Assembly (NCBI GenBank): GCA_044892505.1
Contig: CM097883.1
Location: 160,642,001-160,706,000, forward strand
DNA: 64,000 nucleotides
Reading direction: 5' to 3'
Source: Schmidtea nova
Lineage: Eukaryota
Position numbers and translations under genes: made by a program. Each line of letters begins with the position of its first letter. Within the stretch, counting starts at the first letter, position 1. Shown one piece after another: positions 1,720 through 29,059 of this stretch. Below the pieces are notes generated by a model. The model was given only the letters and a program-made list of their open reading frames with translations, did not search any database and was not told the DNA's origin.

Positions 1720-2653
1720 TGTTGCTATGTTCACTCTATGGAGGGTGACGAACTAACACAGATTTTTATCGGACTCCAAACGATATAACCAAAATATATG
1801 TATGTTGCATGAATTAAAACTAGCAAAACTCAAATAAATAAGAAATATGTTTTATTAATATTTATTGAGATGTACAAAATATTTTTTACAGAAATGCATG
1901 AAAACTACCTTCACACTGTGACTTTCTAGAAAGAAAGATATCGGTTATTGACAAACCGTCCGCGGAATTATTTGACATGACGAAAGCTTGGTCTAAACGT
2001 TAGCAAAAGCTCCGTTCAATGGCGAGAGGAAATGAGACATTGTGGGAATGCCCAAAATTGTTTTCGCGATAGTATTAACCTGGAAATCGGTTAATACTTT
2101 TTTCTTATACGGAATTTTCTGTATACGGAATCAGATAGTACCAAAAGGCAGTACTTAGATTCTTGGAAAATTGTTTTTATCAAGTTAACTTTAGATAGCA
2201 AATTATATAAAGGAAAATGCTAATACCTTTATGATGCTTCACAAATATCTTCTGACGAGTTTAATTCCGAAATAATTTCTATGCCCAAAATCGAATAATT
2301 CCGTACCGCGAAAAACCTAGTAAATAACTCTGAGTATTTAAAATAAACAATCGATATTTATAATGAAACACTCTACTAAAATCTAGCCGATGTTGTATTG
2401 CTATTGAATTTCAAAAATATTATTGTACTTAAATTTTTCTAATTTCTCATAAACTGTTTTTCTTATATGTATATTTATTATTTTGTTTAATAATTACTAT
2501 ATTAATTATAGTTCTATTTCTAGTATTTATTTATTACTATACTTAGTTGTTATTTATTACTATACTTAGTTGTTATTTATTATCAGTATTTTCTAATTAC
2601 TATTTATACATTATTTAAATTTTTTTCTAAAACTACTATATCAAACCTTAACA
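1720..2653 (-). mobile_element. Diverged solo LTR related to the intact element's LTR
   Basis: Shares ordered motifs with the intact LTR: tatcggactccaaacgata, gatgtacaa, tcggttat..aaaccgtcc, cgaaagct..agctccg, cgcgatagt, an AT-rich block and an aacc(t/c)taaca end. Flanks are gtgg/gtgt (imperfect TSD). Confidence 0.75.
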
Positions 2654-3296: not shown

Positions 3297-3691
3297 CAAG
3301 GGTCGGCAACATACGGCCCGCGGGCCAAGTACGGCCCATTCGGTATTTTATTTTGGCCCTTCAAGACTTTTATTACCACCTTGTTATTCGGCCCGCTTTG
3401 GTTTAAATTATTTCAGCTTCTCAAAAAATTCAATTCAAAGTAAAATAATGTGAACCTTCAAAAACTCAATTTAATTTATGAATATACAATTTAAAGTTGT
3501 AGGTAAGTACCAATAATTAAAATATTGTGTTTACGCCTGAATAATTTTCTGAAGGTTTAGCGATTGTTGTTATATAATAAAAATGAATTTAATCAAATAA
3601 TTAATCAACATCAAAGATTTTTATTTCTGGCCCATGCGTAAATTGAAAATTCTGTATCTGGCACTCTCCTTAAAAGTCTTGCCGACGCTTG
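3297..3691. mobile_element. hAT (Charlie-like) MITE
   Basis: TIRs caagggtcggcaa / ttgccgacgcttg. 8-bp TSD CTTTAGAC on both sides. Confidence 0.88.
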
Positions 3692-9300: not shown

Positions 9301-10515
9301 AGGAAAAAGATTACAGTTTGATAAACCTGAAAATCTGAATTTTAAAGGCTTATATATGAGATCGGATTGGGGTGAACACGTAGAAGTTATATATAAATTG
9401 ATTTAACGTGATCATTCATTTAGGTATGCCTACCTCGCGTTGGACGAAACGCATCCTGTCTTATGCAATTTTAGGTTATTCCGATGGTTTATATATCGTG
9501 GTTGTTTGTCACTTCACATAAATATAACTTAAGGAAAATTAATAATCGCAAGCATAAGATTAAAATATTTATTCAGGAATCATTCCTATGTACAATCAAT
9601 AAACAAAAATAAAAAATAAAATCACCGCGCAATAGTCATGTACGTAATCACAGGTATCTATTTATTTGAACTCGTATGGTTTGAGATTCGTAATTTTCGG
9701 TGGTTGTTTTCTATAATCTTAACTGAATTGTTAAATTATTAGAGAATTAAATCAAAGGAATACTTTGAGATTTTAAGGAACATTATTGGGAACAAGTAAA
9801 AAATATATCGGGTAAAATACCACATCATTCAATAGGATGCGTTAAGTACGAACAACAATCATTCATATCAATTCATTCAAACATCACCATCATTACACTA
9901 TTTACACCCGATTCGAACATTTTAATTTTGCTGTTGGATCTACTAGGGCTACTGGCGTTTTCGGATTAATGAAGTTTTGATTGATACCGGAGTTTCTTTT
10001 CTATTTAGGGAAGGTATTCTGATCGAATGTTATATTAAAACTTATCTATTTAATTTACGGTAATGGTGGATTTAAAAAGGCATGGAAGTTTAGGTTTATA
10101 GGGTCCTCAAGGTAGAATGAACATGACAGAATTTATTTATTTCACGGGTATTATATACATCATGAATCAAGAATAAATGAATATATACGTTGTTTCAGCC
10201 AAAGTGTGCGTGTGGCATATTTTAATGCTTCTACTCGCGTCCGTGTGCGCATATTGTTGATTATCTTGTCCGCGTCTGTGTGCGCAAGATTATGTTTGAA
10301 TTAATTGGATTTAAAAACCTTTGGAATAATAGTTTGATATTCTGATTTTGTTTTATGGGGTCTTTGGTTTTAGAATTGTTTTGGTGTGGATTCAAATTTT
10401 GCTTAGTGGGATGGATTGAATTTTGAAAATTGGAATTTTGGTGGATTTTAAATTTGGCTGAATATTATTGAAAAGAGTATTGTGTCGGGAATTCGACGGA
10501 CATTTTTCGTTGTGA

Positions 10516-10967
10516 TTGACTCAAATTCATTTCAATGAATATTCAGAAGTAATCTCATTGCATTTCAATGATGTCTACAACGTCGAAGGTTATCTCAATG
10601 AACTGAAAGCTGGTGCGACTCAGTTTTGCCCTGGTCTTCGAGAATCTCGAACGAACCGTGAATCATTAACTCTGTTTTCTGGTGATCGTTATGTCCGTCC
10701 GTGATTAGTGCAATAATTCAAGGAGATCACGTGCCAGAAATCCTGAATGAACTTGATATCGATGTGGCTGTGTATGGCAATCATGATTTTGACTTCGATG
10801 TTGACAAGCTAATGCAATGTGTGAACAAAATGAATTTCCAATGGTTAAACAATAATGTCTTTGACAATATGACAGATGATTTGTTTGCTGATAAAATAAA
10901 ATGCTTATCCGATGAAGTCTTGGCTCGATTCATACGTAATGCTTATACGTATGAAGCAATCCGGTAA
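10516..10967 (+). pseudogene. 5'-nucleotidase (calcineurin-like metallophosphoesterase) N-terminal fragment, frameshifted
   Basis: Motifs LHFNDVY, LFSGD and VYGNHDFDF split over two frames. No introns and no C-terminal domain. Confidence 0.82.
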
Positions 10968-11646
10968 AAAAGAAATTTTAGGAAATTAAACGTATTTGAT
11001 ATAAAATAAATAATAAAGCAAAATTAATAAAAATAACTTAATTTTGATTTTGAATTAAATATTGTGGTATGGTAACCATGGTGGTTTTGGTAGGATGACA
11101 TTGAAATTCCATACCGATTCGTAGGAATAACCTAATCTCATTGGCTCAAGTACACTAAAAAGTAATTCTAATAGTTATTGGTTAGTTGGTAGTGAACGAG
11201 ATATATCTTAGGAATAATAGATTATACAATTAACCGATAATTAACAGATTATTAACAGATTATTACATTTCCCCTCGTATGTGTACCTATGCTTACTCTA
11301 AATAAACATTTTGGTAGTTCACTCTACGGCATCAGTGACTAGGAAGCAGGTTAGCTGTATTTCTACGACTACTCCTTTATAATTCACTCAATTCGAGTCC
11401 ACACATGCTAATATAAGGCATTCAATTCCTACAATGTCTATCTGGTCACAAATTTAGACAACCTTCGCTTTGTACACGCCTATATCGCAACCTTAAAATC
11501 GGTTCCCTTAACCTCAATGAACTAGAATAAATCAACAAGACTAATGAACAAAACACATTAACAGAAATAGTGAATTAAGGGTGTTTCTACAACAATATGA
11601 TCTCATTTATTAGTTCTAATTCAGATAGTCCGTTAAGATTATCGAC

Positions 11647-12100
11647 TTAACGCATAAATTGTCGACTAAGCTCTTCTCCTTGTCGTTGACGGATCTTTTG
11701 TCGTTTTTTGGCACTTTGTCGTCGCCATTTTCGGTTTGTCAATTCAGGCTGCTGATCACTTCGGATGTCTATGGACGACTGTGCTTCACTCCACTTCTCG
11801 AGATTCATCGGTCGTATTTTACTGGCCAATTCTCTCTGAACATACTCGACTGTTACTCCTTTCCTTAGATGACTTTTTTTCCAGGCGAGTAGCACTTAAC
11901 TCTACATCAAGATCACTGTTAGCTCTCTGTAGAGGTTATACTTTCATACGGGCTTCATTCATAGTTGACGGTGAAAAATAATAATTTTCCAATTCAGCGA
12001 CTTTCCTAGTTAATCATCTTATACGGTTGTCGTCCCTCAGGCGTTCTTGTTTAGCGCACTTGCACAGTGAAATGATTTTCTTTGCTACTTCGGGAACCAC
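11647..12100 (-). pseudogene. Disrupted homolog of the 5979-6392 small basic coiled-coil ORF
   Basis: Translated similarity across stops and frameshifts: LTRKVAELENYIF...LDVELSATRLE...ELASKIRPMNLEKW...RKWRRQSAKKRQKIR. Confidence 0.55.
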
Positions 12101-12297
12101 TAAAAGAAAATTTTGTTTAATGCAACGTTAGTAATATTTTCGCAGAATGATTTCCCGACATTTCCCTTTAAGTTCAAGAAAAACTATACCTCTCTAGATA
12201 ACGGAATTCTCTGTGTCTTATTGTTCACTAAATTTTTTTGTGGACGCCGTATAAATCGGCTTCAGAAAAACACATCAACACAACGAAATTGTATTAG

Positions 12298-12726
12298 TTA
12301 TGAACAATCATCGTTAGATAAGTTGAAGTTCATGTTCGAATAGTGTTTTGGCTTCCTATCGAGAATCAGCAGTCTCCCTAATTGCGCTAATTCCGTTTGT
12401 GGCAACTCTTTATCGGCTCTGATCTTCTGAAGTCCGCTCCATCGGCATGATACTGATCGGAAAAAGTGTGGCATATCCGTGTCTATTTCCACATTTATTG
12501 GCCATCGGTGACTCTCTTGCCAGACCGTGTCGATGTGGGGTTCTTCACTCTTCGGAAAATATATTTGACCGGTTATCAAAGTCTCTAATTTCCTGAGCAT
12601 AATCTCTGTCGCTGTTTCTGGATTAACATCCATGGATTCAATTATATGGGATTCCACAGTTGGGATTTCTTCCATAATGCCCCAGATCTTATCACAGATT
12701 TTATTAAAAAAATTAAGTGGTTGCAA
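12298..12726 (-). CDS. 142-aa ORF of unknown function, probably belonging to a decayed LTR-type repeat
   Basis: Coding-like composition and open frame. No recognisable motif. Confidence 0.3.
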   Translation of the reverse strand: MQPLNFFNKICDKIWGIMEEIPTVESHIIESMDVNPETATEIMLRKLETLITGQIYFPKSEEPHIDTVWQESHRWPINVEIDTDMPHFFRSVSCRWSGLQKIRADKELPQTELAQLGRLLILDRKPKHYSNMNFNLSNDDCS

Positions 12727-12979
12727 AAATCTAATAAACTTTCGATATTAAGTTTATCCTTTCAGAAATTTAATGGACATTTATCAAAGGAAGTAAATTT
12801 TATTAATTAGGAAACATAATTTTCATATTTATGGATAAACAAGTTGGATGGTAATTTTATTTTTAGAGAATGTCGAAGTTTATGGCCGATAGTACTGTCT
12901 TTAAAATTTTAGTGCTAAAGCTTCAGATATACTTAACCAAAATTTCAGGGGGAATCAATTACAATAGAATAAATGTTTG

Positions 12980-14062
12980 TGTTCGGTTCGTATCAGTGGT
13001 TTACGACGAACACAGAAAGTATATATATTTATATATATTTGATTTGATTATCGGACTCCAAACGATAATCCGCTTATATAATTATAAATAAAATATATGT
13101 TTTAGGTTGTGTGTAAAGAAAAACAAGAACTAATTATTTTTTAATAAAATGTATTGTGAAATATGTATATCGATGTACAATATAATAAAATAGCTGCAAA
13201 AGCAAAAGTTAGAGAATCGGTTATACAAACCGTCCTAAGATGTTTAAGAACGAAAGCTGGACCTAAAAGGCTCAACAGCTCCGACTAACTGAAAGGACAC
13301 AAGATGAGGGGTTTCCCTGTAGTTTAACCGCGATAGTGACAACCCAGAATTGGTTGTCACTGTGACTTAATAATTTTCCCTTCTGATAATTTATTATGTA
13401 ATGACTTTACTGAAGGGGAAAAATAGTAATACAACTATTTCCCCGTGATCGATTTATAGAATTTTAAAAGAAACAAAACTAGAAGATTTACCAGCTAATA
13501 AAGATTTTTCCGATTTCGGGAAATTATCACAAATGAAATTCAAGCTAAGCTTCTCGTAATACTTCTGCCGTAAAATTAATTTCTCCAATTCACAAATTTG
13601 TCAAACTAAAATTCTAAAATTCACTTCGGTAAAATTTATGTTCTGTAAACACTTATGTTTCTCTCTCTACTTCTGTCAAAATTAATTTCTGTTTCAACTG
13701 ATTTTGCAATCAGTTTATATACAAATTATTTTCTCTCATGTAGGTCTAGACGACCACCTATTACTAACTACGTGTAGGTCGAAATTGACCTTACAAAATA
13801 TTACTTTTAAAGTAATTTATTATTACTATATATATCTTATTATTACTATTTAAATTTCTTATGTATTTATTTATTACTATATTTATTATATATTATTTAA
13901 TTATTACTATATTTAATCTATATTTATTTATAGTAATTATTTATTTACTATTACTATTTATCTATTTATTTATAGTAATTCTTAATTGCTATTTATATTT
14001 ATTTATTTACTTATAATATTTAATTACAAAAACCCGAGATCCCTTGATCTCGAACCCTAACA
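12980..14062 (-). repeat. 3' LTR (1083 bp)
   Basis: Direct repeat of 26876-27958. PPT is adjacent. Confidence 0.97.
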
Positions 14063-14064
14063 TG

Positions 14065-14074
14065 TCTTCCCCCT
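14065..14074 (-). promoter_or_regulatory. Polypurine tract
   Basis: Minus strand AGGGGGAAGA, 2 nt before the 3' LTR. Confidence 0.85.
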
Positions 14075-14357
14075 AACAAGATTTTCGTCCCGAAAATTAA
14101 AGCGGAAAAGACAAGAAGGTTAAGCAGCCAAAAATAAAAAAAATAAAACAACAACACATGCATATATACATAGAATGCACTTGGTCAAAATGAGTCTCAT
14201 AAAACACATAATACATAATTAATGTTGATCACAATCGATATCAAATAATAATTGTCTGTAAGCGTTGGATTGTTGATCACATAGCCGAAGTGCTAATTGT
14301 TTGATTGATAGTTGTCATAGCTTATAGCTAGACCTTGGATTGAACGTAGCAGAAATG

Positions 14358-16394
14358 CTAGTTATCCTTTGCGAATAGGTTTTGAGCTGCTCTCTTGCGA
14401 ATATGCGCTTGCTCGTTCTTGATGCGATCTTCCACTATATCTGGTCTATAGCTGACCACCAATGTTTCGCGTGTTTCGACTTCCTTATATACCAAAGACG
14501 AAATCACGTATGATTTTCCGTTGGCCTCCAATACGCCATAGTAAGGGAAGTTTGAAACTGATGATTGGTGTACCGGTTTCCCGTCGTATTCTTTTATCCG
14601 AGGTACCCAATTTCTCTCTGGTCGCTGCCAAAAACTAGGGTCTTCATTGTCCAAATCCTGGGGTATCTTTGCTGAATTTCCCGTTCCAACGAAATCCCCT
14701 TCTCTTATAATAATAGGTTCGCCCTTAACCTCCGGAATCTGTTCCATATCGGGTGGGATGAATGCTGTTTCGATTAAATCTTTGTCTTCCGTCGAGATGG
14801 GATTTGGTACTTTCTTTTTGATCTTTAGATCTTGTAACCTTACAACAGGTTCTTGACTTTTCTTTGGGGGTGACTTCTCCACTGAAGTCAATTTTTTAAA
14901 AGTCTTAGTAACTTTTTCCAAGAGCTTGTTCTCTTTCTTTGGTGGATTTTCTGGCACGATCTTTGTAATTGTACGGCTGTCTCCGTGTAAAGTTAAACGC
15001 ATCTCTGTTTGCTCCTCACCCTCGCTTTCGCAGGTGGCGTAATCGTCTTCATCAGCTAAGGATATAGCTGGAGGGGATAGTGATTCTTCCTCAACTATCT
15101 TTTGTAATTTGGTTGATAATGGTTGTTCCTGGGGTAAGCTCTCAATAGCTTTCCTTTTACTCGTTTCTTGTGGCTGTATTGTATGAACCATTTTGACTTC
15201 TGATGTAATTGTCCCACTACGATTACCTGGGGTAATGTCATCTACCCAAACTTCTCTCAGTTTAAGGTAAATATTACGTGTCGTTTCCACGTCATTTTCC
15301 GTTTTCAGATCTGAACGGTTTAGTTCTTCTTTTTCGAGAATTGACTTTGATAAATACGCGAGTCGATAATGTCCGTTACATTTCTTTAGTTCTCTCGCTT
15401 CCAGGCATTTTGCTGCTCCTAGTTCTCTAATGCCCAAAACTCGTTGAGGGTGTAACTGGACTGCTTCCAAGAAATCGTTGACTTGGAGACCTATTAGGAT
15501 TTTCCCATCACATAATTTTCTAATACGGTCTGCGCAATCCTCTCCATCAAATTGTCCGATGATTTCTTTTTCGGTCATACCATGCGCGTGCGATTGGTAA
15601 TGTTTGACCTGGTTTCTGGGTGTAACCACCGTGTTTAGTATTAAATCACCACAGTAGTTTGCTATCGAAACAGCCACCAAAGCTGGCTTTAAATAATCTC
15701 GCAAAGTTGCGTAATGCGCTGCAACAAATATTGACAATCTATCTTCTTGATTGGGGTGCAGATTCATCCGAACAAAGGATTTGAATGATTTGAGATCGTT
15801 CTCATTCACATTATAGGTCCAGGCAGGTTCATTTTTCCACAATGATTGCACTGCCTTGCTAGGTTCCAAAATCTCTAATACCACAATAGTATTATATCCG
15901 TCACATTGGATGGAGATATTCTTTTCTCTGCCATCTCCGTTACTAATTTCTAGAGTTGATTCTGGTTGAAGTAGGATGGGTCCTGTGGCTCCTGCCATGA
16001 AGATTGTAAAGGGTTTATTGATCGCGTGAATCAGGAGATGGTGAGTAAATGTTGATCTGTTGAATTCCGCCATGTGTTCAGTCAACCGGGTGTTCTCACG
16101 GCTGGTGATTGTGACTATGCACATTTGTCTCTTAGGCGATCCGAGAAACTTAAAATTGTTCGGGATGCCGGTGCAGTGCCCGTAATACCAATAGCGACGA
16201 CCTTTCCGTGCCTCTGCGGATATCGCTTTTTCGATGTTTCGATAAATCAGTTTTTCCTTCTGTATTGTTTGCACATCGATAGTGCTATAACGCTGCTTGT
16301 ATTGTGACACTTGATGCTTCATATCTGAAAGAAAAATAATTAACGTTAATATCAGATATACTGATATGCCAATATTGGCTAAAAAGGAATGCAT
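14358..16394 (-). CDS. Accessory ORF2 of the LTR element (678 aa): degenerate AlkB-like domain, degenerate REX4/ISG20-like DEDDh exonuclease domain, charged low-complexity region
   Basis: Long open frame between the polyprotein and the 3' LTR. ALVAVSIANYCGDLILNTVVTPRNQVKHY..HG...KILIG...IRE..L aligns by eye to the REX4 fold. The true start may be the ATG after the splice-acceptor-like TTTCTTTCAG at ~16325. Confidence 0.8.
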   Translation of the reverse strand: MHSFLANIGISVYLILTLIIFLSDMKHQVSQYKQRYSTIDVQTIQKEKLIYRNIEKAISAEARKGRRYWYYGHCTGIPNNFKFLGSPKRQMCIVTITSRENTRLTEHMAEFNRSTFTHHLLIHAINKPFTIFMAGATGPILLQPESTLEISNGDGREKNISIQCDGYNTIVVLEILEPSKAVQSLWKNEPAWTYNVNENDLKSFKSFVRMNLHPNQEDRLSIFVAAHYATLRDYLKPALVAVSIANYCGDLILNTVVTPRNQVKHYQSHAHGMTEKEIIGQFDGEDCADRIRKLCDGKILIGLQVNDFLEAVQLHPQRVLGIRELGAAKCLEARELKKCNGHYRLAYLSKSILEKEELNRSDLKTENDVETTRNIYLKLREVWVDDITPGNRSGTITSEVKMVHTIQPQETSKRKAIESLPQEQPLSTKLQKIVEEESLSPPAISLADEDDYATCESEGEEQTEMRLTLHGDSRTITKIVPENPPKKENKLLEKVTKTFKKLTSVEKSPPKKSQEPVVRLQDLKIKKKVPNPISTEDKDLIETAFIPPDMEQIPEVKGEPIIIREGDFVGTGNSAKIPQDLDNEDPSFWQRPERNWVPRIKEYDGKPVHQSSVSNFPYYGVLEANGKSYVISSLVYKEVETRETLVVSYRPDIVEDRIKNEQAHIRKRAAQNLFAKDN

Positions 16395-16508
16395 AAATCT
16401 CGATTTACGGGATCTACTTATGCTGTAAGTTAATGCTACTCGGAGCTCAACAAGATTATAGATTTTAATATATATATAAATACAAATATGTGATTTTATC
16501 TGTAATTG

Positions 16509-19500
16509 TCATAATCTCGTCATCATAATCCCATCAACCGACTCAATAGCCTGGCTGAAGAATAATTTCATCCAAACTCCCATTGCTATCAATGTAGTGA
16601 TCATAGCTAATACTGCTGACGTAATAATCCATACCCCAACGGGTAATTTTCCCAAGTGAGAAATGGGGTTTACTTCATTAATTTCACACTGACAACTTTT
16701 AATATAGCTTTCTGTTGATACTGTTGGTTTTACCATTTTCAATCCTTTCAATCTCTGCCATATTGCAGGATGAATGACGTAACTCTCTTTCCGTATCAAG
16801 GATGTGACTGATTTCGTTGTCGTCGATGATTGTGGTAATTTCAAAGAGATTACTTCATAAAATACCTCATTCCATTCATCGACTCCGGGCTTTTGTTTAT
16901 TATTCATATAAGTGATATGAGCTTCCCACTCCACTGAGCTGTTCCACTTGAGATTTTGTTTCTCAATATCTTCATTTAGCCACAATTCTTGCACTATTTC
17001 CTTGTCGGAATGGATTTCTATCCTTACCCTATCCACTCCTTGTTTTGGTTGGCTAAAGGTAATCATACCTTGTTGGATATTTATTCTAACTTTCCTTTTG
17101 AAATCTGCTGTCTTCAGCTTCCATTGTGACTTTGAAAAATCTGACCATCGTCCAAACATAAAATGTTGAACAAGTATATCTAACAGATATTCCTTTTCTG
17201 CTCGTAAGTCCTTTATGACTTTCACTCTTGTGTTTGAATCCAATGTAAAATGGAAACAACGTCGTTCGCAAAACGAGAACTTGAATTTGGTATCATTTTC
17301 AGCTAATGATATTATCCTAAATTCCTGAAAAGATCTTCTGAATGCGAGATCTTGGATTTGAACCGCTGTTGGAACAAATGTCTTTACACAGGATATGAGG
17401 CAACTTATTATTACCAAAAATGTAACTGATTTTGGCACGCCTCTTGATCGTAATGGATATCTGTCTGAGACTGATTCTGACCCTTTATCCTCCTTTTTCT
17501 TAATCGGATCTTTCTCCGTGACCGCAACTTTCTTGCATCTGTTAGCATGTACCATTATTGGTTCAGCTTTTCTATTTGCTACTAATTGCAAGATTAAATT
17601 CGTGTCTGTGGTTCTCAAAACCTCATATGGTCCTTTGAAGTTTCTCATTAATTTAGGTGATAAGCCCTTTTTATTATAATGGCTTTCCAACATCACCTTG
17701 TCTCCAACTAACATGCCATGTCCTTTGGCTTTCTTATCATGATAATCTTTCGACGCTTCCTGACTGAATTTTATACTAAGACCTGCTTTTGTCCATGCTT
17801 CTTGCATTCTTTCTCTCATTTCCATGAGATAATCCTCTTGGTCTAAATACTGCGTTGCTTTTGGGAAAAACAACAAATCTATAGGCATTTTACTTTGCCT
17901 TAAATACATGAGATAGAACGGCGTTTGTCCCGTACCCTCATGAACAGCATTTCTGTATGCGAATAGGCATGATGGAATATGTATATCCCAATCCGTTTGC
18001 CCTGAATTTACGTATGATGCTAGCATATTTGCGAGCGTTCCGTTAAATCTCTCTACCAATCCGTCTGTTTGTGGATGGTATGGAGAGGTATTCAGTTTTA
18101 AAATGTCGAAATAATCATTTATTCCTTTTAACAGATTACTCATGAAATCTGCTCCTCTATCTGTAAGTAGTTTTGTAGGTACTCCATACCTAAAAACAAT
18201 TTGCTCTACGAAAATCCTGGCTATCGTATCTGCCTTGTGATTCGGTATCGGATAAGCCTCCGGCCATTTCGTCAAGTAATCGCAAAATACCAATATGTAT
18301 TTGTTACCACTATTTGATTCTTTGAATGGCCCTAAAACATCCATTGCCGTCATTTCCATCGGTGTGGATGGTACTGGCATTGGTTTCATTGGCACATGCG
18401 GTTTCTTCCCCGTATTTCTCCTGGTGATACAGATCTTACATGTCTGACACCATTCTTGTACGTCTTGTTTGATTGTCGGCCAGAAATATTTCTGCTTCAA
18501 CCTTGACAATGTTTTCCTGGAAGACAAATGCCCTCCCAGTGCTCCATCATGATATTGTAACATCAAGGCTTCCCGATATTTCTTAGGGACCATTATGACA
18601 TTATCCCTTACGTCTACATATTTGACTAATCCTTCTTCTAGAATAAATTTGTCTCGATTTTTCTCCCAATATTTATTAAATTCCGTCGGTATGAACTTTG
18701 CTTCTAAAGCCTGTCTGATTTGGTTTATCTCTTCATCCGATTGTTGTGCTGCCATTAAATCCGCGAGTCTGTTTGCTTCTCTTGTAAGTGCGAAGATTGT
18801 TCCTTCTAATCTTCCTTCTTTGACGTCTTCTGCTTCATCACCTTGGTCCATTCGAGAAAATGCATCTGCATTCCCATTTTGGTGTCCTTTACGGTAATGT
18901 ATTTCGATATCGTATGGCTGCAAGATCAATGCCCATCTAACCAATTTTGATGTATCCATAGTATGCTTTGTTAACCACTGTAATGGTCTATGATCCGTAT
19001 ACACAATGATCTTTCGACCCCATAAATATGTCCTGAATTGGTGTATAGCATACACAATTGCTAATGCTTCTAATTCGATAACTGCGTAATTCTTTTCATG
19101 TGGTTTTAATCCTCTGCTAGCATACGCTATTGCATATTCGTCTCCTAGGTCATCTCTTTGACCTAACACAGCACCAATACCCCGAGTGCTGGCGTCCGTC
19201 ATGACCAAAAATTGTTTCTCAAAATCTGGAAACCGTAATATAGGAGGTTCCACGAGCATCCTCTTTAGCATATCAAATGCTTCCTGATGTTCTTTTCCCC
19301 ATACAAATTTGACATTTTTGCCCTCTAATTGTGTCAGAGGAAATGCTATTGCCGAAAAGTTCCTGATGAACTTCCTGTAATATCCCACTAAGCCCAAAAA
19401 CCCTTTTATATGTTTGACTGTCTTTGGCTCTGGAAAATTCTTTGCTTTCTCAACATTTGCTGGATCTGGCTTTACTCCATCCTTCGAGATAATGTGACCG

Positions 19501-22500
19501 ACATAGACTACTTCTGATTCGGCCCATTTACATTTTGATGGTTTTACCTTAAGATTTGCATTAATTAACCTTTTGAATACGTCCTCTAAATGTTCTAAAT
19601 GCTTTTCCAAATCTGGAGAAAATACTATGATGTCATCTATGTATACCATTGCATGATGAACATCCATTAACATTAGATTCATTGCTCTTTGAAACGTTGC
19701 TGGCGCTCCTGTGAGACCAAATGGCATTACTGTATATTCGAAGTGTCCCAGGCTTGTAGAAAAAGCCGTAATTGGTATTGTCTCCTCTTTTAACTTGATT
19801 TGGTAAAATCCCTTCTGAGCATCCATCACTGAAAAATATTTTGAATTTCTCATACGACCGTAGATGTAATCCAGTAATGGTAATGGGTGACTATCCTTGC
19901 AAGTTGCTTCGTTTACCATTCGATAGTCGTTGCATAGTCGTACCGTTCCATCCTTTTTAGCCACTACTATCATTGGTGACTGGTATGGTGATTTACTATG
20001 CCTGATGATGTTATGTTTTAACATCAGTTTTACCTGCTTATCGACAGGTTCTTCCAAGCTAAACGGGATTCGATACGGTCTCAGCTTTATTGGTTTAATA
20101 TTGTTAAGAACAATTTCATGTTCCAACAAGTTCGTCTTTCCCAGATCATATTCGTGCTTGGCGAATACTTGATCATATTTTCTTAACAACATGTTTACTT
20201 GAATATTCTCTCTTCGTGAAAGAGCTTTACTATTTGCCGTTGGCGCATCATAGTACTCGATGTCTGGTTCTCTATTCTCTGCCTTCACTGTCAGGACAGA
20301 TCCCCCAATCGGTAATTGATCCGACTTTGATACTCTCCCTACTCTTGTATCTGGGTACAATTTTAATGGTTTTATATCTAAATTGGCTACCCGAATTGGT
20401 ATTCTGCCATTTTCAACATTACCAACGCTATGCGTAATTGGTAGATTATATTTTGCTGAAAACCTTTCATCTGGTTCGAATACAACTTCTCCTTCCAACT
20501 GTTCGCTAGTGGACACGAAACATACTGTTTCTGCTCTAGGTGGTATTATCATCGTATGGTCGATGAAAACTGTATCATCATTATAAACTTTTCTTTTCTT
20601 ACCGATTGATCTAACTAACAATCCGGTAGCACAGTCAAATACGACTCCTTTTAATCTTCTTAAAAGATCCATTCCTAGTAGACATTCCACTGGACAAGTT
20701 CTCATGACTATAATATCATGACGAAATTCTTGGTCACATAGCTTGATGTTACAAGCTAGAGTACCAATAATATTCAATGATGTGCCTGTAGCACCTGTTA
20801 ACGAAACTCTTGAGGTTTCCATTGATTCCAATTCTTTTTGATTTAATAGTGTTGCCTCTATGATAGTGCCGTCTGCTCCTGAATCTATCACTGCATTAAC
20901 TGTGTGTCTGTTTATTTTTATCTTTATCATGGGTTTCTTATCCAAGTTCACCCCATTTGCCATCAAAATAGTAGCATGCGTTATCCCGATGGTATTTGCT
21001 CTGAATTTCTCTGCTTCATCTTGTTCGGTATCGCTCAATTTTGGATTATATTCCTTGAATTTAGCTTTTATTGCTTCTAACGACTCGATAGGATACAGTT
21101 TCCCTTCATTTTCTAACGATAATGATATGCTTTTACCTGTTTCTCGAGCATCTTTGTCGAGAATTTGTTGATGTTTAGAAATGTACATTTTGTTTCTTTG
21201 AATTGTTAAAGCATAATTTAGTTTGCCCTCTCCTGATGTCTTTTGAAACTCTGGCGATTCCCCCTTTGGCGCTGTTGGTAAGCTTCTAAGATATGGTAAT
21301 TGCATATATCTTGGATTTCTTTTCAATCTAGGCGATGCTGTATTGATTGCAAATTTCTGGTCTGCACTATCGTATTCATCTTCTGAAATCATACTTTTGT
21401 CGAAAATCTGTTTTGTCGCTTCGTAAGGTGGTTGATAATCCCGATATTTCATTTTCCTTAATTGATGATTCGGTTTTTTATTGTAGTTTCTTTTTCGACT
21501 TCTACTTTGTCTCTGAACTGTATTAAGAGAGTCTCCAATACCTCCTCCTTCCGAATTGTTATCGTCCCGATAACTTGTATTACCCTCCATTTCGATTCCA
21601 ATAATCTCGTGTTTTACCAAGCTTCTCTGTTTGATTGTCTTTATTTCTTTACGATGATGTTTAAACAATGCAAATTCCGCACACATAGGACACAATCCTA
21701 GTATCAACTTCCAAGACCATCCACCGATTTTGAATATACTGTATGTGGAGATTAATTGTGTTATTATTAACTTTAGAATTACGAATATTGCATATATTCC
21801 TGAGCAGCCTGCCACGAAAATACCAAAATTGGTAAACCTTCCCCATATTTTCATCATCACATTTTTAGCTGCTTCTTTATAATGATCTGGACCGAATAAT
21901 AAATTGTAATCTGGTCTCATTTCGTTTGCTTGGTAAATTGTTCTTATGATTTCAGTGATACCTCTTTCTCTTACTTGAGGGAATAGCAATGTCTGTCTTG
22001 CCTCCTCAATGTCTGCTGAAGTGTAAATTCCTCCTTGTGATAATTCATCGAGTGATTTAAATTCCATGTTTTCCTCGAGTTTCGTGACTTCCAATGTTTC
22101 CACCTTTCTATTAGATGGTTTTCTGTCAGGTAATGAGATCCATCTATCATTTACCTTGTATAACGGTGATATTGCTGGATTGCAAATTGAAGGTTGAGGC
22201 TTTTGTTTTTCATCCAAAAGTCTCCTCGTAACTGGCATTACAAATCGTATTTTGTTTTGATATGACACTGGTAATTCTAGAGTACATTCGTTATACCGTG
22301 TTAATTGTACCTCTATGGGTTGACATTGATAGCTGTATATAGCTTCCCCCATAATTCTGCCAAACATTCCATCTTCTAGCAACATAGGTGTCACTAGATC
22401 CGGATTCACGATTGATATCGCTAACCGATTTCGAACTATTTCGCGATTTAGTTTGCAATCATTGAGTATTACTTCCTGATACATTTCCTGCATTTGTCCT

Positions 22501-25500
22501 TGCAGATCATGATATAAATAATCTATTTTATTATTTATATAGTTCGTGATTTTGATATCCTGGCTGTGAATATTCTTGGCTTTTTGGATAAATGTTTTTG
22601 ACAAATATAATCCTTTATAGTTGGTCTCGTACACCACTTTTCCGCATTTTGTCTTCTTATCTTTTCTGACAAATCTGATTGCATCTTTCTTATCTTCTGA
22701 TACTAATACTAGAGGTGTGATTTCCTCACTAATATCCTCTTTTTGCTGTTTGTTGATCCTTTTCAACGTCTTTTCTTTATCCCAAATTCTTTCTCTTTTG
22801 GGTAAATCTCGATACTTTGTCCCGTTCAACTTATGGAAATTAATTTTCTTTAGTAATGACAATTCGCAATGGTCTAGTATTTGATCGTATAATAATGTAA
22901 TGACCCCTGTTCTGCAGCTTCCAAATTTCGCAAGGCACTGAGGGTGTGCCATTAATCTACCTGATAATACATCGAACGTCCCTTCGTATTCTCTTAATTC
23001 GATTGAATAGTCCTCAATATCTACGACAAAACTTACCAACTCCGATCCGCGAGTTTTCTTTCTTCCCGTACAGGTACCATCTGATCCGATTGATCCTCCT
23101 CGTGTAATGGTTACTCCCAGTGTTTTTCCTACTTCCGCGGCGATGGTTACCTCGTTATCGATTCTTAAAGTACCTTTTCGAAAGGCGTCTAGACAATCCT
23201 CTGGCAATATGTTGACAGGTCTAGGTATTAGAGTGGCTGATAGAAAAGCAGTATAGCTGTGTGAACCACAATAATATTCAAATGTCGCTCTTTGGACTCT
23301 ACATTCTCTTATCTTAGTTCTGAAAAATTCACTTTCTTGGTAGACATAGTATTCGACCTTTTCTCCTGTTTGGACTTTCTCTGGATATGCCTCTTTGCAC
23401 TCAATTGCATCTACGAGCGAATATATCCGAGCTAACTTTGGATCACTGCAATCAAACGCTGTCATTGTGTTTGTCTGTTTCATTATCCCCATCATTACTA
23501 AAAACATTAATATCATATTTGTCATATTCCCCATTCCTCCATTTCCGAGGTGGTTGTTATTCATAGCCTCTTCCACAAATTCATATCGTGGTTTATGTTT
23601 CTCCTCTTCCCAGAAATTATTTTCACTCATCCACGTTCCGAGATAATGCTCCGTTATCTCCGTGATCTGGTCTATTTCTCGATTAATAAGCTTCTTCTCA
23701 TTGCCTGCGCGGGCTAAAGCATCTTGAATCAACATAGATAATGCTGTCAATATTTTTCCTTTAGATAACCCATCTTGTATGAGTGTCTCTAACATACTCT
23801 GTATCTCGTTTTGCGATACCCCTTTAGGTAATCTCCTCATAGTCTTCGCGATTGACTGTGTCACTTTATCCACTTGAATTCCTTTAATCCGAGTGATCTG
23901 CCATTCTGGCTTTAATATTCCTATGATCTGTTTTAATCTCTTCCATGTCAGAGATTTTTCTGGTATATGCACACCTTCGTCTCTCATATCAACATCCCTG
24001 GCTATTCCTGACAGGGTTTTCATCTGAACCTGTTTAATGGTTTCTTGATTTAATTGCTCCGTTGGTGGAGGTTTCATTTGATCTTTCCTAGGTCTTCCTC
24101 GTCTATCTTTCTTTGTCTGCCATGCTGGCCTGATAGTTTCTACCGCCTGAGAAGTTGAAGCTCCCACGTTAGTTTCCTCATTATTGAGTCTGATTTCCTC
24201 TTCTCCGTGATTATCGGCATCGATATCTACATTAAATGGTTGTGTTTCGACGTTACCAGTGACCATTTCATCTGGTAACCGTAATGCTGACCATTGAGAT
24301 TCAGGTGGCTCTACGGGAATGATTGCTACCGTTGTTGTTTCAAAAGGTAGACATCCCACATCTACTAAATATTCATCATCATCTACTTGCCCTCCATGAA
24401 TCATAATCAAGAATATACCGGTAGTCTGCCCAGTATCTATTAAATCCTTTCTCAACGTTATTACTTTGCTAAAACAACGATATAACCTCGTCATGGGTTC
24501 TTTTCCTGATATTCGAATGTCTAAAGTTATCATGCCTTGTCGGTGTGCTTGATGACGTATTGCTGTTCCATTTTTCCTCATTAACATTTTTATTTCCGTT
24601 TGAAACGAACTAGTTTCCTTTACTACAGGTAGTAGAATAGGAATTATACTCTCCAATGATTCTACTGGTATGCGCAATACCAACATCCAGTCTAATATTT
24701 CCTTGATTGTTTCTCCATCCCTCGGAGATTTCTGCAACTCTATCTTCAGACGTTGCTCTATTTGTTGGACTTCCTCCAACTGTGCAATTTCCATTTGTGT
24801 GAGTAGAAACACACTGTCTTGATCCACTACTGGGACCGATATTCCTGTCAGTTTCGTTGTGAGTTTCGTTACCATTCCTGGTAATACACCATTTTGTAGT
24901 AGTGTTTCCCCAACTACTAACTTTTCTCCATATAAATAAAAATCATATCTATTATGTTTCAATTTCATCATTGTATCTGACAACTTGTCTGTTCGACATC
25001 TTACATTCATGTCGATGTTAAACTCCTGCTCCTGAGGAAGTTTTATGTTTAAATGCGAATCCTGAAGATCCCATTCATGCTCCATTGCAGTTCCTATCTT
25101 TCGTAGGATTTTATGTATGTCGCTATGATACCTTGGATCATCTTCGACCTGAGATATTAATTGTAATATCTTTCCAATTTCACTGTTCTTGATATCACCT
25201 TGTGATAATTTCTCTAATTCTCTAGTCAGTCTCTGCTGATACTCATATCTGGAATCCACCAGTTTTAAACATTTTGCTAGGGTATCTGACCCTTTCTTGG
25301 CCTTTGTTTCCTTGAACAAAGCCTGGTCGAACTCGCTCAGTATGGTACTCATACTGGGTTCGTCATCATTATCAGAATTTGTTTCTGATTCTATTACCTC
25401 ATGATTCTCGCTGCTGGAATCCATGGGTTCACTATTTCCTTGCTCATCTGTGTGAGCATCATGATTTTTCTCAGCTGAAATCATCAAAACTGTTCCTTGC

Positions 25501-26774
25501 CCAACTGTGTGAGCATCATCGCTTTCCTCAATGGGATTCATTATAACTGTTCCTCGCCCATCCATGTGAGCATGATTTTTCTCAGCTGAAATCATAAAAA
25601 CTGTCTCTTGCCCAACTGTGTGAGTCTCATTCTTTTCCTCTATTGTATTCATCAAAACTGTTCCTCGCTCATCTGTGTGAGCATGATTTTTCTCAGCTGA
25701 AATCATAAAAACTGTATCATCTCGATCCATTAGCCGTGCTAATCGATTTTTCTCCTCCTGGATTTCCATTTCCAGTTGTTGCAAATACGTCAATTCTTTA
25801 TCGTGATTGACCATGAACGTAGTTTTTGGCTTGCTGACATTACCACTATTGGTAGTCCTATTATTCGTATTATTACTCTGATTTTGAGGACACGACCTCA
25901 GAATATGCCCGAATTTTCCACATCCGTGACATTTTATCTTTCCTGATGAATTAACATCATCCCTTTTAATATTAAAATTCCCATTCGTTGGGAGATTCCT
26001 AACTCTACAAACTGAAGCAACATGCCCTCTGCGTTTGCATTTATCACACTGCAAGTTCGTGACTCTACAGTTCTCAACACTATGATTATTCATACCACAT
26101 TTAGTACACTGAATACTCCTACGAGTATCAGCTACCTTCTTACTGTGGCAATCTTTTGATATGTGCCCTTTCTTATGGCAGTTAAAACATTCAATGGCTG
26201 GCTTCTCATTATTTATCATAAATGATGTAGCTTTTTCTAAGCTGCTTTCGATTACGACAGCTTTTCTTGTTAATTCCCAAAAATCATCTCCCGTGTGGAG
26301 AATCAATGCATTTCTCATTACATTTGTGAATCCAGCTAATAATTGGTCTTTAACCATAGCTTTAGTTGCATCATTCCAGGTAGTTCTGAGCCCAAACGCT
26401 CTTTCGGCTAATAACAATAATTGGTAGGAAAATTCTCCTACATGTTCATTTGCATTCTGCTTCCTGTGATAAAATTGTTGTCGGAAAATTCTACTTGAAT
26501 CTCCCGGTAATATTCTAGCTGTTAGTGATTCTCTCATCTTTTCCCATGTAGCTGGTTTATCTGCTGCTGGTAACGCCATAATATCATTGTAGTTTTCCCT
26601 TGCCATACCCTTAAGGTAAATTGGCAGTCTTTGTATCATTATCGCATCTGGATACCCATAGGCCTTTGCCATCTGATAATATTCTGACATAAACTCCGGA
26701 AATTCCCCTGGATCTCCGCTAAATGCCTTGACAGGTAAAGCGGGATATCTAGCAAAAACATTTTCCTCAACCAT
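16509..26774 (-). CDS. Gag-glycoprotein-Pol polyprotein (3421 aa): Gag/4xCCHC, ubiquitin-like modules, chuvirus-like glycoprotein, aspartic protease, RT, RNase H, integrase, C-terminal FN3-like membrane protein
   Basis: Open frame. CX2CX4HX4C x4. Protease VIDSGA. RT motifs MPFGLTGAPATFQR and YIDDII. RNase H motifs TDAS, ELEALA and TDHRPL. Integrase HHCC, MDVLGP, TDRG, DGLVERFN and GPY. Confidence 0.97.
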   Translation of the reverse strand: MVEENVFARYPALPVKAFSGDPGEFPEFMSEYYQMAKAYGYPDAIMIQRLPIYLKGMARENYNDIMALPAADKPATWEKMRESLTARILPGDSSRIFRQQFYHRKQNANEHVGEFSYQLLLLAERAFGLRTTWNDATKAMVKDQLLAGFTNVMRNALILHTGDDFWELTRKAVVIESSLEKATSFMINNEKPAIECFNCHKKGHISKDCHSKKVADTRRSIQCTKCGMNNHSVENCRVTNLQCDKCKRRGHVASVCRVRNLPTNGNFNIKRDDVNSSGKIKCHGCGKFGHILRSCPQNQSNNTNNRTTNSGNVSKPKTTFMVNHDKELTYLQQLEMEIQEEKNRLARLMDRDDTVFMISAEKNHAHTDERGTVLMNTIEEKNETHTVGQETVFMISAEKNHAHMDGRGTVIMNPIEESDDAHTVGQGTVLMISAEKNHDAHTDEQGNSEPMDSSSENHEVIESETNSDNDDEPSMSTILSEFDQALFKETKAKKGSDTLAKCLKLVDSRYEYQQRLTRELEKLSQGDIKNSEIGKILQLISQVEDDPRYHSDIHKILRKIGTAMEHEWDLQDSHLNIKLPQEQEFNIDMNVRCRTDKLSDTMMKLKHNRYDFYLYGEKLVVGETLLQNGVLPGMVTKLTTKLTGISVPVVDQDSVFLLTQMEIAQLEEVQQIEQRLKIELQKSPRDGETIKEILDWMLVLRIPVESLESIIPILLPVVKETSSFQTEIKMLMRKNGTAIRHQAHRQGMITLDIRISGKEPMTRLYRCFSKVITLRKDLIDTGQTTGIFLIMIHGGQVDDDEYLVDVGCLPFETTTVAIIPVEPPESQWSALRLPDEMVTGNVETQPFNVDIDADNHGEEEIRLNNEETNVGASTSQAVETIRPAWQTKKDRRGRPRKDQMKPPPTEQLNQETIKQVQMKTLSGIARDVDMRDEGVHIPEKSLTWKRLKQIIGILKPEWQITRIKGIQVDKVTQSIAKTMRRLPKGVSQNEIQSMLETLIQDGLSKGKILTALSMLIQDALARAGNEKKLINREIDQITEITEHYLGTWMSENNFWEEEKHKPRYEFVEEAMNNNHLGNGGMGNMTNMILMFLVMMGIMKQTNTMTAFDCSDPKLARIYSLVDAIECKEAYPEKVQTGEKVEYYVYQESEFFRTKIRECRVQRATFEYYCGSHSYTAFLSATLIPRPVNILPEDCLDAFRKGTLRIDNEVTIAAEVGKTLGVTITRGGSIGSDGTCTGRKKTRGSELVSFVVDIEDYSIELREYEGTFDVLSGRLMAHPQCLAKFGSCRTGVITLLYDQILDHCELSLLKKINFHKLNGTKYRDLPKRERIWDKEKTLKRINKQQKEDISEEITPLVLVSEDKKDAIRFVRKDKKTKCGKVVYETNYKGLYLSKTFIQKAKNIHSQDIKITNYINNKIDYLYHDLQGQMQEMYQEVILNDCKLNREIVRNRLAISIVNPDLVTPMLLEDGMFGRIMGEAIYSYQCQPIEVQLTRYNECTLELPVSYQNKIRFVMPVTRRLLDEKQKPQPSICNPAISPLYKVNDRWISLPDRKPSNRKVETLEVTKLEENMEFKSLDELSQGGIYTSADIEEARQTLLFPQVRERGITEIIRTIYQANEMRPDYNLLFGPDHYKEAAKNVMMKIWGRFTNFGIFVAGCSGIYAIFVILKLIITQLISTYSIFKIGGWSWKLILGLCPMCAEFALFKHHRKEIKTIKQRSLVKHEIIGIEMEGNTSYRDDNNSEGGGIGDSLNTVQRQSRSRKRNYNKKPNHQLRKMKYRDYQPPYEATKQIFDKSMISEDEYDSADQKFAINTASPRLKRNPRYMQLPYLRSLPTAPKGESPEFQKTSGEGKLNYALTIQRNKMYISKHQQILDKDARETGKSISLSLENEGKLYPIESLEAIKAKFKEYNPKLSDTEQDEAEKFRANTIGITHATILMANGVNLDKKPMIKIKINRHTVNAVIDSGADGTIIEATLLNQKELESMETSRVSLTGATGTSLNIIGTLACNIKLCDQEFRHDIIVMRTCPVECLLGMDLLRRLKGVVFDCATGLLVRSIGKKRKVYNDDTVFIDHTMIIPPRAETVCFVSTSEQLEGEVVFEPDERFSAKYNLPITHSVGNVENGRIPIRVANLDIKPLKLYPDTRVGRVSKSDQLPIGGSVLTVKAENREPDIEYYDAPTANSKALSRRENIQVNMLLRKYDQVFAKHEYDLGKTNLLEHEIVLNNIKPIKLRPYRIPFSLEEPVDKQVKLMLKHNIIRHSKSPYQSPMIVVAKKDGTVRLCNDYRMVNEATCKDSHPLPLLDYIYGRMRNSKYFSVMDAQKGFYQIKLKEETIPITAFSTSLGHFEYTVMPFGLTGAPATFQRAMNLMLMDVHHAMVYIDDIIVFSPDLEKHLEHLEDVFKRLINANLKVKPSKCKWAESEVVYVGHIISKDGVKPDPANVEKAKNFPEPKTVKHIKGFLGLVGYYRKFIRNFSAIAFPLTQLEGKNVKFVWGKEHQEAFDMLKRMLVEPPILRFPDFEKQFLVMTDASTRGIGAVLGQRDDLGDEYAIAYASRGLKPHEKNYAVIELEALAIVYAIHQFRTYLWGRKIIVYTDHRPLQWLTKHTMDTSKLVRWALILQPYDIEIHYRKGHQNGNADAFSRMDQGDEAEDVKEGRLEGTIFALTREANRLADLMAAQQSDEEINQIRQALEAKFIPTEFNKYWEKNRDKFILEEGLVKYVDVRDNVIMVPKKYREALMLQYHDGALGGHLSSRKTLSRLKQKYFWPTIKQDVQEWCQTCKICITRRNTGKKPHVPMKPMPVPSTPMEMTAMDVLGPFKESNSGNKYILVFCDYLTKWPEAYPIPNHKADTIARIFVEQIVFRYGVPTKLLTDRGADFMSNLLKGINDYFDILKLNTSPYHPQTDGLVERFNGTLANMLASYVNSGQTDWDIHIPSCLFAYRNAVHEGTGQTPFYLMYLRQSKMPIDLLFFPKATQYLDQEDYLMEMRERMQEAWTKAGLSIKFSQEASKDYHDKKAKGHGMLVGDKVMLESHYNKKGLSPKLMRNFKGPYEVLRTTDTNLILQLVANRKAEPIMVHANRCKKVAVTEKDPIKKKEDKGSESVSDRYPLRSRGVPKSVTFLVIISCLISCVKTFVPTAVQIQDLAFRRSFQEFRIISLAENDTKFKFSFCERRCFHFTLDSNTRVKVIKDLRAEKEYLLDILVQHFMFGRWSDFSKSQWKLKTADFKRKVRINIQQGMITFSQPKQGVDRVRIEIHSDKEIVQELWLNEDIEKQNLKWNSSVEWEAHITYMNNKQKPGVDEWNEVFYEVISLKLPQSSTTTKSVTSLIRKESYVIHPAIWQRLKGLKMVKPTVSTESYIKSCQCEINEVNPISHLGKLPVGVWIITSAVLAMITTLIAMGVWMKLFFSQAIESVDGIMMTRL
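17560..20930 (-). other. pol: Pol region: protease (~20620-20930), dUTPase-like linker (~20335-20575), RT (YIDD at 19632-19643), RNase H, integrase with GPY/F motif
   Basis: Canonical Ty3/Gypsy motifs in PR-RT-RH-IN order, with catalytic residues apparently intact. Confidence 0.95.
21660..23525 (-). other. env: Envelope glycoprotein domain, chuvirus (Jingchuvirales)-like class III fusion protein, inside the polyprotein
   Basis: Hydrophobic signal MILMFLVMMGIM, then TAFDC. Cys-rich ectodomain with YINNKIDYL, CKLNREIVRNRLAIS, GEAIYSYQCQPIEV, CTLELPV, FVMPVTRRL and GGIYT, which I recognise from chuvirus-type glycoproteins. TM segment FGIFVAGCSGIYAIFVILKLII. Confidence 0.8.
25888..26774 (-). other. 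gag: Gag region: capsid-like domain plus four CCHC zinc knuckles
   Basis: LPIYLKGMA...RKQNANEHVGEF gag-like motifs. Knuckles CFNCHKKGHISKDC, CTKCGMNNHSVENC, CDKCKRRGHVASVC and CHGCGKFGHILRSC. Confidence 0.9.
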
Positions 26775-26854: not shown

Positions 26855-26872
26855 ATCACGTCGGGCTCACCA
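26855..26872 (-). promoter_or_regulatory. Primer-binding site, tRNA-Trp type
   Basis: Minus strand TGGTGAGCCCGACGTGAT, 3 nt inside the 5' LTR. One mismatch from the canonical animal tRNA-Trp PBS TGGTGACCCCGACGTGAT. Confidence 0.88.
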
Positions 26873-26875
26873 AAA

Positions 26876-27958
26876 TGTTCGGTTCGTATCAGTGGTTTAC
26901 GACGAACACAGAAAGTATATATATTTATATATATTTGATTTGATTATCGGACTCCAAACGATAATCCGCTTATATAATTATAAATAAAATATATGTTTTA
27001 GGTTGTGTGTAAAGAAAAACAAGAACTAATTATTTTTTAATAAAATGTATTGTGAAATATGTATATCGATGTACAATATAATAAAATAGCTGCAAAAGCA
27101 AAAGTTAGAGAATCGGTTATACAAACCGTCCTAAGATGTTTAAGAACGAAAGCTGGACCTAAAAGGCTCAACAGCTCCGACTAACTGAAAGGACACAAGA
27201 TGAGGGGTTTCCCTGTAGTTTAACCGCGATAGTGACAACCCAGAATTGGTTGTCACTGTGACTTAATAATTTTCCCTTCTGATAATTTATTATGTAATGA
27301 CTTTACTGAAGGGGAAAAATAGTAATACAACTATTTCCCCGTGATCGATTTATAGAATTTTAAAAGAAACAAAACTAGAAGATTTACCAGCTAATAAAGA
27401 TTTTTCCGATTTCGGGAAATTATCACAAATGAAATTCAAGCTAAGCTTCTCGTAATACTTCTGCCGTAAAATTAATTTCTCCAATTCACAAATTTGTCAA
27501 ACTAAAATTCTAAAATTCACTTCGGTAAAATTTATGTTCTGTAAACACTTATGTTTCTCTCTCTACTTCTGTCAAAATTAATTTCTGTTTCAACTGATTT
27601 TGCAATCAGTTTATATACAAATTATTTTCTCTCATGTAGGTCTAGACGACCACCTATTACTAACTACGTGTAGGTCGAAATTGACCTTACAAAATATTAC
27701 TTTTAAAGTAATTTATTATTACTATATATATCTTATTATTACTATTTAAATTTCTTATGTATTTATTTATTACTATATTTATTATATATTATTTAATTAT
27801 TACTATATTTAATCTATATTTATTTATAGTAATTATTTATTTACTATTACTATTTATCTATTTATTTATAGTAATTCTTAATTGCTATTTATATTTATTT
27901 ATTTACTTATAATATTTAATTACAAAAACCCGAGATCCCTTGATCTCGAACCCTAACA
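26876..27958 (-). repeat. 5' LTR (1083 bp)
   Basis: Starts tgttcggttcg and ends gaaccctaaca on the + strand. Same length as 12980-14062, with no mismatch seen by eye. PBS is adjacent. Confidence 0.97.
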
Positions 27959-29059
27959 TTTGTATAAATAATTATTCGCACACTGACAGTTATGGCTCAA
28001 AAAAATTGTTAAACAGGATTTATCTAAATATTTCAACCATTTTCTCAAAATATTTAATCATTTTCTCAAAATATTTAATACCTAAAATTCAATTTATTAA
28101 AATGCAAAAACAATAAAAAATCAAAAAAATTACACAATAACAATTAACAAATAATAGACAATCAAGAACATAGCATTTAGAGCTCTTATTTAAAATTATT
28201 CTCTTATCAATGCATTAACCAAAAACTCCTGTGTATGTGAATAAAGGCAACAAAGTGTTCAGGCGATATTTCTTAAAACTTTGTTTGTATGCAACTTAAT
28301 AGCTCTTCACGGGATCTGAAATAGGCACTTTTAATTTTACCTTTCCAAAGAAAACACTTCAATAGTATTTAATTGAGATGTATAAGATGGAAGAAAAGCA
28401 GTTCTGTGTCCTGCTGCTTCTATTTTATTTTATTATTGATATATTTTTGTGGATTGAGCAATTATCAGCTATAATAACCAGATTAATCAAGTTTCGGTTC
28501 AGTAATTCAAGTAACATGTCACCTATAAATTCTGAAAATAAATTAGTGTTAAAAGCCTCCCTTACTATCTTATAATTAATCACACCATTTCTTGTAATCC
28601 TCGCACATACATAAATGTTCTGGGATGTTATTGATGTGATGGTTTTACAAGATGTAATATTTTATAATAACATTTTGAAATAGAAAACAAAATTCAATCT
28701 TATTTACTTCGACATTAAACTGTGATTTTCATGCGGAACGTGATCGAACATTTTAGTGAAGGGTAATAATTAATAATTTCTTATTAATAAAATATTTTCC
28801 CCTTGCAAGGAAAGATAAACCCTGTATGAAGACAGAAAAGATTTCAACAAAAACAAGACAACATCATCATCAACTCCATATCCACATCGCAATTCATTAG
28901 ATCCAATCTCTTTGCAAGACACAACCGCCTCTCAACCAATAATAAATGCGTTGCCACTTAATAATCCCTCATCGTTACCTCAAAAACCAACTACAGATTA
29001 TAATTTCGATTCATCAATAATTCCAATGCAGGTTTTAACGCAAGATTCAGCTCAAGTTT

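Follow-up and report, generated by a model that had tools for sequence, protein, structure and literature searches.

The LTR of a young retrotransposon of Schmidtea nova appears to carry two separate RNA features: a U5 hairpin whose loop would make a second contact with the tRNA-Trp primer, and a domain of conserved hairpins (H0–H4) that would single out full-length RNA to be packaged or exported. On the sequence comparisons presented here, a probability of roughly 0.6 is assigned to this reading. The window is a stretch of 64,000 nucleotides (contig CM097883.1, positions 160,642,001 to 160,706,000), and all coordinates are those of the window.

By its sequence the element at 12980–27959 (minus strand) belongs to the gypsy-type retrotransposons; it is young and carries a primer site for tRNA-Trp. 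Its two LTRs are identical over 1084 nt, and the 4-bp target duplication TTTG is present at both flanks. In ORF1 gag, a fusion glycoprotein and PR-RT-RH-IN lie in one frame, which is the Burro-like layout of Ty3/gypsy elements with env inside the polyprotein. ORF2 (654 aa counted from the ATG at 16322) gave no Pfam match and a single weak lead to an exonuclease (score 0.76). The TGA that ends ORF1 (16503–16511) is followed by CAATTA, and the frame continues into ORF2 in this copy; this is a readthrough-like context. The family is large, its core pattern being found exactly 381 times (control 0), and the solo LTR at 1720–2653 belongs to an older sister clade, the other copies of which match it at 66–89%. 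The window also contains a related pair of MITE-like palindromic elements of ~200–250 nt (39649–39896 and 61498–61741).

Table 1. Positions of the retrotransposon features within the window
Feature	Position	Strand	Remarks
3' LTR of intact element	12980..14063	minus	1084 nt, same as 5' LTR
5' LTR	26876..27959	minus	each feature of the 3' LTR repeated at +13896
U5 hairpin	13046..13070 (5' LTR copy 26942-26966)	minus	8-bp stem, 9-nt loop
U5 loop UUUGGAGUC	13054..13062 (5' LTR copy 26950-26958)	minus	complementary to host tRNA-Trp anticodon arm
PAS-like box	13104..13114	minus	10/11 complementary to tRNA-Trp variable loop and 5' T-stem; weaker evidence
Poly(A)-signal-like hexamer	13140..13145	minus	such a hexamer in 24 of 35 copies
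Hairpin H4 (CGGTT/AACCG)	13218..13232	minus	sequence kept, without covariation
Conserved single-stranded block	13233..13239	minus	CTGAGGA in most copies
Hairpin H3 (AGCT stems)	13251..13283	minus	near-invariant G.U, UU bulge; two pairs differ between A and B clades
Small hairpin H2 (GGG/CCC)	13308..13317	minus	poorly aligned
Hairpin H1	13335..13361	minus	10 bp; covaries significantly; a conserved ATCGCG comes next (13329-13334)
Hairpin H0	13415..13444	minus	absent from the preliminary description; covarying stems flank a kept 2-nt pyrimidine bulge
Splice-donor-like G/GTAAAT	13486..13492 (5' LTR 27388/27387)	minus	predicted
TATA box	13714..13721 (5' LTR 27610-27617)	minus	kept with the following bases in A-type copies
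Primer-binding site	26855..26872	minus	complementary to 3' end of host tRNA-Trp(CCA)
ORF1 polyprotein	16509..26774	minus	gag zinc knuckles, Monjiviricetes-type fusion glycoprotein, protease, RT, RNase H, integrase
ORF2	14358..16326	minus	ATG at 16322, two bases past acceptor-like AG (16325-16326)
Old solo LTR, sister clade B	1720..2653	minus	U5 hairpin 1767-1785; H1 2071-2098

A preliminary description of this DNA had compared the element's LTR with the solo LTR and proposed that paired stems persist despite the divergence of the two. Each stem that it listed was recovered in its place. The segment 13335–13361 does differ from 2071–2098 by three compensatory pairs, AGCTG/CAGCT differs from AGCTT/AAGCT by one, and the CGGTT/AACCG stem and the TATCG/CGATA stem with its 9-nt loop are common to both LTR types. 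A profile search then matched 89 of 108 loci, of which 45 non-redundant ones were retained; 37 copies (47–87% identity) were aligned, the eight weakest or interrupted being left out. In this alignment the hand-named stems pair in 83% of cells, against 29–46% with slid partners, a count in which the columns of the poorly aligned H2 are out of register.

Since the split between A and B clades dominates plain covariation (mutual information), double changes were counted over 18 phylogenetically independent sequence pairs, with a null in which partners matched for base and variability were reassigned. Over all stems pairing was kept in 21 of 35 double changes (null 7.3; 0/10000 null runs as high), six of the 21 being contributed by one sequence pair; the covariation on which the proposal had been made to depend is present in the larger alignment. 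The outer stem of H0 kept 7/11 double changes paired (null 2.7), its inner stem 4/6 (null 1.1; 347/10000) and H1 9/13 (null 1.7). The AGCT and CGGTT stems, also listed in the preliminary description, showed no excess over these 18 pairs (H3, 1/3, null 1.2; H4, 0/2, null 0.6). The per-stem counts mean that H0 and H1 are founded on covariation, and H3 and H4 simply on conservation and compatibility. RNAalifold, applied to the full alignment, predicted six pairs, all in H0. The H3 loop could form a pseudoknot with CTGA, and the H1 loop one with AGAA, though neither shows covariation.

As to the sense strand, it had been stated that G-U pairs favour the minus strand. This is clear for one G.U pair in H3, present in 33 of 37 rows; for the remainder the excess is weak (75 G.U against 54 A.C cells, and 16 against 13 in the small U5 hairpin). 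Single-sequence folding is modest and does not favour a strand, z lying between -1.7 and -2.4 for each of them. Bulges are kept in H0 (TT or CT in 33/37) and in H3 (TT in 31/37). ATG triplets are depleted on the sense strand: the 843 nt from TATA box to gag start hold none (11.3 expected; minimum of four in 500 shuffles), although antisense ATG is as frequent there as expected, and 45 domains together hold 39 in sense (141 expected) and 156 in antisense (197 expected). That the stems are DNA palindromes without a role in RNA, maintained by template switching or as binding sites close to the promoter, is quite improbable: the strand-neutral folding energy, the modest G.U excess and the retention of H3 and H4 in sequence, as protein sites would be retained, are what such palindromes would give, but the kept bulges and the near-invariant G.U are unlike perfected palindromes, and the strand-specific loss of ATG indicates that the sense RNA is under selection. 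The sequence data support a conserved RNA structure that acts in cis in R/U5, with the minus strand as sense.

The start site is inferred to lie 20–32 nt downstream of the TATA box. H0–H4 fall between this box and the poly(A)-like signal; in 24 of 35 copies such a signal precedes the U5 hairpin by 50–130 nt. Given the ATG-free leader, the upstream TATA box and the downstream hexamer, H0–H4 probably belong to an R region of ~560 nt that is scanned by ribosomes. A multi-stem domain in R, as expected of a Rex/Rev-type element, is present in H0–H4, the limits of R being inferred.

The domain matched no catalogued RNA. Rfam at loose thresholds returned two chance-level matches in positions 1000–15000 of the window and none in six relatives, and a metagenome pattern search returned 13, all at chance level; searches of open literature turned up no account of such features in planarian LTRs. 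The single-stranded blocks are strongly conserved, and CTGAGGA fits the hammerhead CUGANGA box, which would suit a self-cleaving ribozyme in H3–H4. The GAAA box is missing past the H4 stem, however, there is no adjoining stem I, and no covariance model of a ribozyme or IRES matched, in agreement with the earlier remark that no known ribozyme was recognised; the catalytic core is absent. An IRES in the same hairpins is disfavoured by the ATG-free leader, which suits scanning, and by the ~340 nt between the domain and the start codon. Either identity is accordingly very improbable.

The splice-donor-like site lies ahead of H0 in 16 of 25 A/C-type copies and in one of 20 B-type copies (raw counts, without a control), and all 79 pattern matches retain the acceptor-like AG before the ORF2 ATG. 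Spliced retrocopies were found neither at this acceptor (0/79) nor at one past the primer site (0/72), which is uninformative on splicing. An intron confined to the LTR, from the donor to the CAG after H4, is not supported: no copy has the spliced spacing, none of eight joints shows it, the pyrimidine tract is missing in many copies, and the CAG may belong to a small hairpin. Another acceptor-like site directly past the primer site (26841–26850) is present in all 72 matches, and loci L052 and L056 have similar sites. If spliced to this acceptor, a gag-pol mRNA would lose all of H0–H4, U5 and the primer site.

H0–H4 lie downstream of the donor-like site, with acceptor-like sites further on; were that donor used, this would be the place of a packaging signal. 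A splice from donor to ORF2, if used, leaves the 5' copy of H0–H4 on unspliced RNA and so fits a packaging or export signal, and from its position the domain is probably one or the other; the argument from unspliced RNA is weakened because every transcript also ends, at its 3' side, with a copy of H0–H4. The occurrence in both LTRs would equally suit an element acting mainly at the 3' end, in donor recognition and poly(A) choice or in RNA stability, and the donor-like site upstream of a poly(A)-like signal inside R recalls the foamy virus configuration (PMC3694450). We regard this as rather unlikely, as the donor is ~345 nt from the poly(A)-like signal and nine other Trp clusters with the same poly(A) problem have no H0–H4.

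The second feature of the proposed pair is the U5 hairpin. The host tRNA-Trp(CCA) gene is present in arrays and its 3' end matches the primer site of the element; a copy in a tRNA-Pro array (L165:1501-1572) carries a TAT anticodon within a Pro body. The loop UUUGGAGUC, read in sense, forms seven contiguous Watson-Crick pairs with the host tRNA-Trp, or 9–10 counting G.U, along a stretch running from the 5' anticodon stem through the anticodon loop. Opposite tRNA G37 nearly all copies have U; a methylated G37, which we presume, would account for the absence of selection for C in the loop. The hairpin is present in 43 of 58 loci examined, 31 of the 43 having the exact loop. In an alignment of 40 rows, from which two doubtful rows were excluded, the loop columns are kept in 37–40, and three outer stem pairs swap between clades, a covariation that tracks the division between A and B and could go back to a single event. 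The loop is predicted to be unpaired in the 12980–27959 family (probability 0.90). Its box lies inside U5, 78–87 nt upstream of the primer site, and the complete 3'-end site is also present. Two properties of an HIV A-rich loop, complementarity to the anticodon arm and predicted display by a hairpin that lies upstream of the primer site, are seen in the sequence of this family. A T-arm box with at most one mismatch occurs 30–50 nt upstream of the U5 hairpin in 27 of the 43 copies (a raw count without shuffle comparison), and is not prominent in the 6-mer profile of Trp-primed LTRs. Two other roles for the loop, as an antisense anticodon mimic or as a second priming site within U5, were tried and rejected: the stem is missing in other families, and priming within U5 would cost the LTR end. 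The LTR end itself (12980–13014, and likewise in all Trp clusters) folds as an inverted-repeat hairpin, the stem sequence of which varies by family, and several families have an ACCGAC/GTCGGT pair spanning the primer site.

The comparison was extended to 57 loci with a Trp primer site (11 LTR clusters) and 33 Pro-primed copies. Over the 130 nt that lead up to the Trp primer site GGAGTC ranks first among the 4096 6-mers and occurs in 9 of 11 clusters; it was absent from three upstream control windows. Copy by copy, it is found in 50 of 57 Trp-primed and in none of 33 Pro-primed (giant) copies, the exact core being missing from two Trp clusters and seven copies. Watson-Crick runs of at least seven to the Trp arm occur in 10 of 11 Trp and in none of five Pro clusters (chance 3–11% per cluster), and runs of 9–10 in six Trp clusters; the direction in which the match is extended varies from cluster to cluster, each extension staying in register with the tRNA. 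A generic extended-primer-site pattern gave 63 matches, at Trp sites alone. Pro-primed LTRs have anticodon runs of 5–6 and no clear reciprocal box, primer type being confounded with lineage. In giant Pro-primed LTRs (L140, L144, L147 and L200) 14 of 33 copies have CCCTA(G/A) at a distance of 50–85 nt ahead of the primer site, an ambiguous motif that is complementary both to the tRNA-Pro D loop and to the LTR's own upstream TAGGG loop. Four other Trp-primed families (L021, L022, L023 and L027) have a leader with tandem partial primer-site repeats downstream of the primer site.

It is unlikely that GGAGTC is instead an ancestral protein-binding or DNA-level motif (for integrase, RT, transcription or a 3'-end factor) whose match to tRNA-Trp arose by chance or through pairing within U5 in some families. 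The Trp clusters, which share ancestry (related gag), may count as one origin, and a single origin would suit such a motif, as would the lack of a reciprocal box in Pro-primed LTRs; 7-nt runs also arise in 3–11% of shuffled U5 regions, and a CCGACT close to the box is its predicted pairing partner in several families. Against this stand the runs of 9–10 in 6 of 11 clusters, with in-register extensions on both sides, and in the 12980–27959 family the box fills the loop and has no intramolecular partner. Display in a loop is not general, as the box is predicted to be partly paired in eight other clusters (unpaired 0.08–0.62).

The preliminary description had assigned all the hairpins to a single element for packaging, dimerisation, export or translation. 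The conserved sense-strand structure stands; the hairpin at 13046–13070 has to be taken out of it, its loop matching the anticodon arm of the primer tRNA and its core being common to Trp-primed families without H0–H4. Nine Trp clusters lack H0–H4, for which reason the U5 loop and H0–H4 are treated as separate features, and when 24 loci from other Trp and Pro families were searched with an H3–H4 model, no match rose above noise (best E 0.21).

The two-feature reading can be set out as a sequence of steps. The 3' end of tRNA-Trp would anneal to the primer site while its anticodon loop kisses the U5 loop, which we consider fairly probable; that a second U5 box also contacts the T-arm side is a tentative addition. 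Such a double contact would serve to select the primer, and to pace the initiation of reverse transcription or protect it. Transcription very probably begins past the TATA box, so that the RNA would carry H0–H4 in R. Somewhat doubtful, as judged from the predicted sites, is the further step in which the donor joins the acceptor before ORF2, the 5' copy of H0–H4, U5 and the primer site stay in unspliced RNA alone, and Gag or a host protein binds H0–H4 on the full-length RNA. A bolder proposal, which we hold to be unlikely, is that this gypsy clade checks primer identity through a 7–12-nt U5 box on the tRNA-Trp anticodon arm, in the 12980–27959 family by a T-box-like loop-loop contact, and that together with a Rex-response-like R domain this represents an independently evolved form of complex-retrovirus RNA control in an env-bearing retrotransposon. 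If true, the longer anticodon contact, shared by many diverged LTR families, would be a clear example from nature of primer reading beyond the primer site as a general property of LTR elements, and the R domain would be an uncatalogued structured RNA in an active, envelope-bearing element.

Precedents for an additional primer contact are the A-rich loop and PAS of HIV-1 and the U5/T-loop contact of avian viruses (PMC3185550, PMC13191261, PMC7793103); the anticodon contact of HIV-1 is short, strain-dependent and debated (PMC3185550). By analogy the planarian U5 loop likely acts like the HIV-1 A-rich loop, there being in both a U5 hairpin loop opposite the primer anticodon loop and a U5 box opposite the T-arm side (PMC3185550). 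It differs in belonging to a gypsy-type element, in using tRNA-Trp, in extending over 7–10 mixed pairs into the anticodon stem where HIV-1 has ~4 A-U pairs, and in being clade-wide and known from sequence. Avian sarcoma/leukosis virus likewise combines a tRNA-Trp primer with an extra U5 contact (PMC3185550, PMC13191261), but its contact is with the T arm, whereas the dominant box of the planarian element faces the anticodon arm. The second tRNA sites of Ty3 and gypsy lie near the 3' end, and that of Ty1 beside a short primer site (PMC5371799, PMC1635307); the planarian element has a full primer site and a U5 loop directed to the anticodon. Half-tRNA priming, as in copia and Ty5 (PMC10886601), does not describe it, since the box is inside U5 with a full 3'-end site and not directly after the LTR.

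H0–H4 resemble the Rex response element of HTLV and the R region of foamy viruses in the long R, the ~230–250 nt of stem-loops and the donor inside R (PMC3504254, PMC3694450), and are unlike both in having the poly(A)-like signal downstream of the stem-loops. With the Rex response element the likeness is one of size and place, with no sequence or Rfam match (PMC3504254). Among planarian elements, the present one differs from the gypsy elements Burro and GYPSM1 in its length of 15 kb, its 1.1-kb LTRs and its Trp primer, the giant elements examined being Pro-primed and without the U5 box or H0–H4, and it is like them in that gag and pol are separated by an in-frame fusion glycoprotein (PMC6431247).
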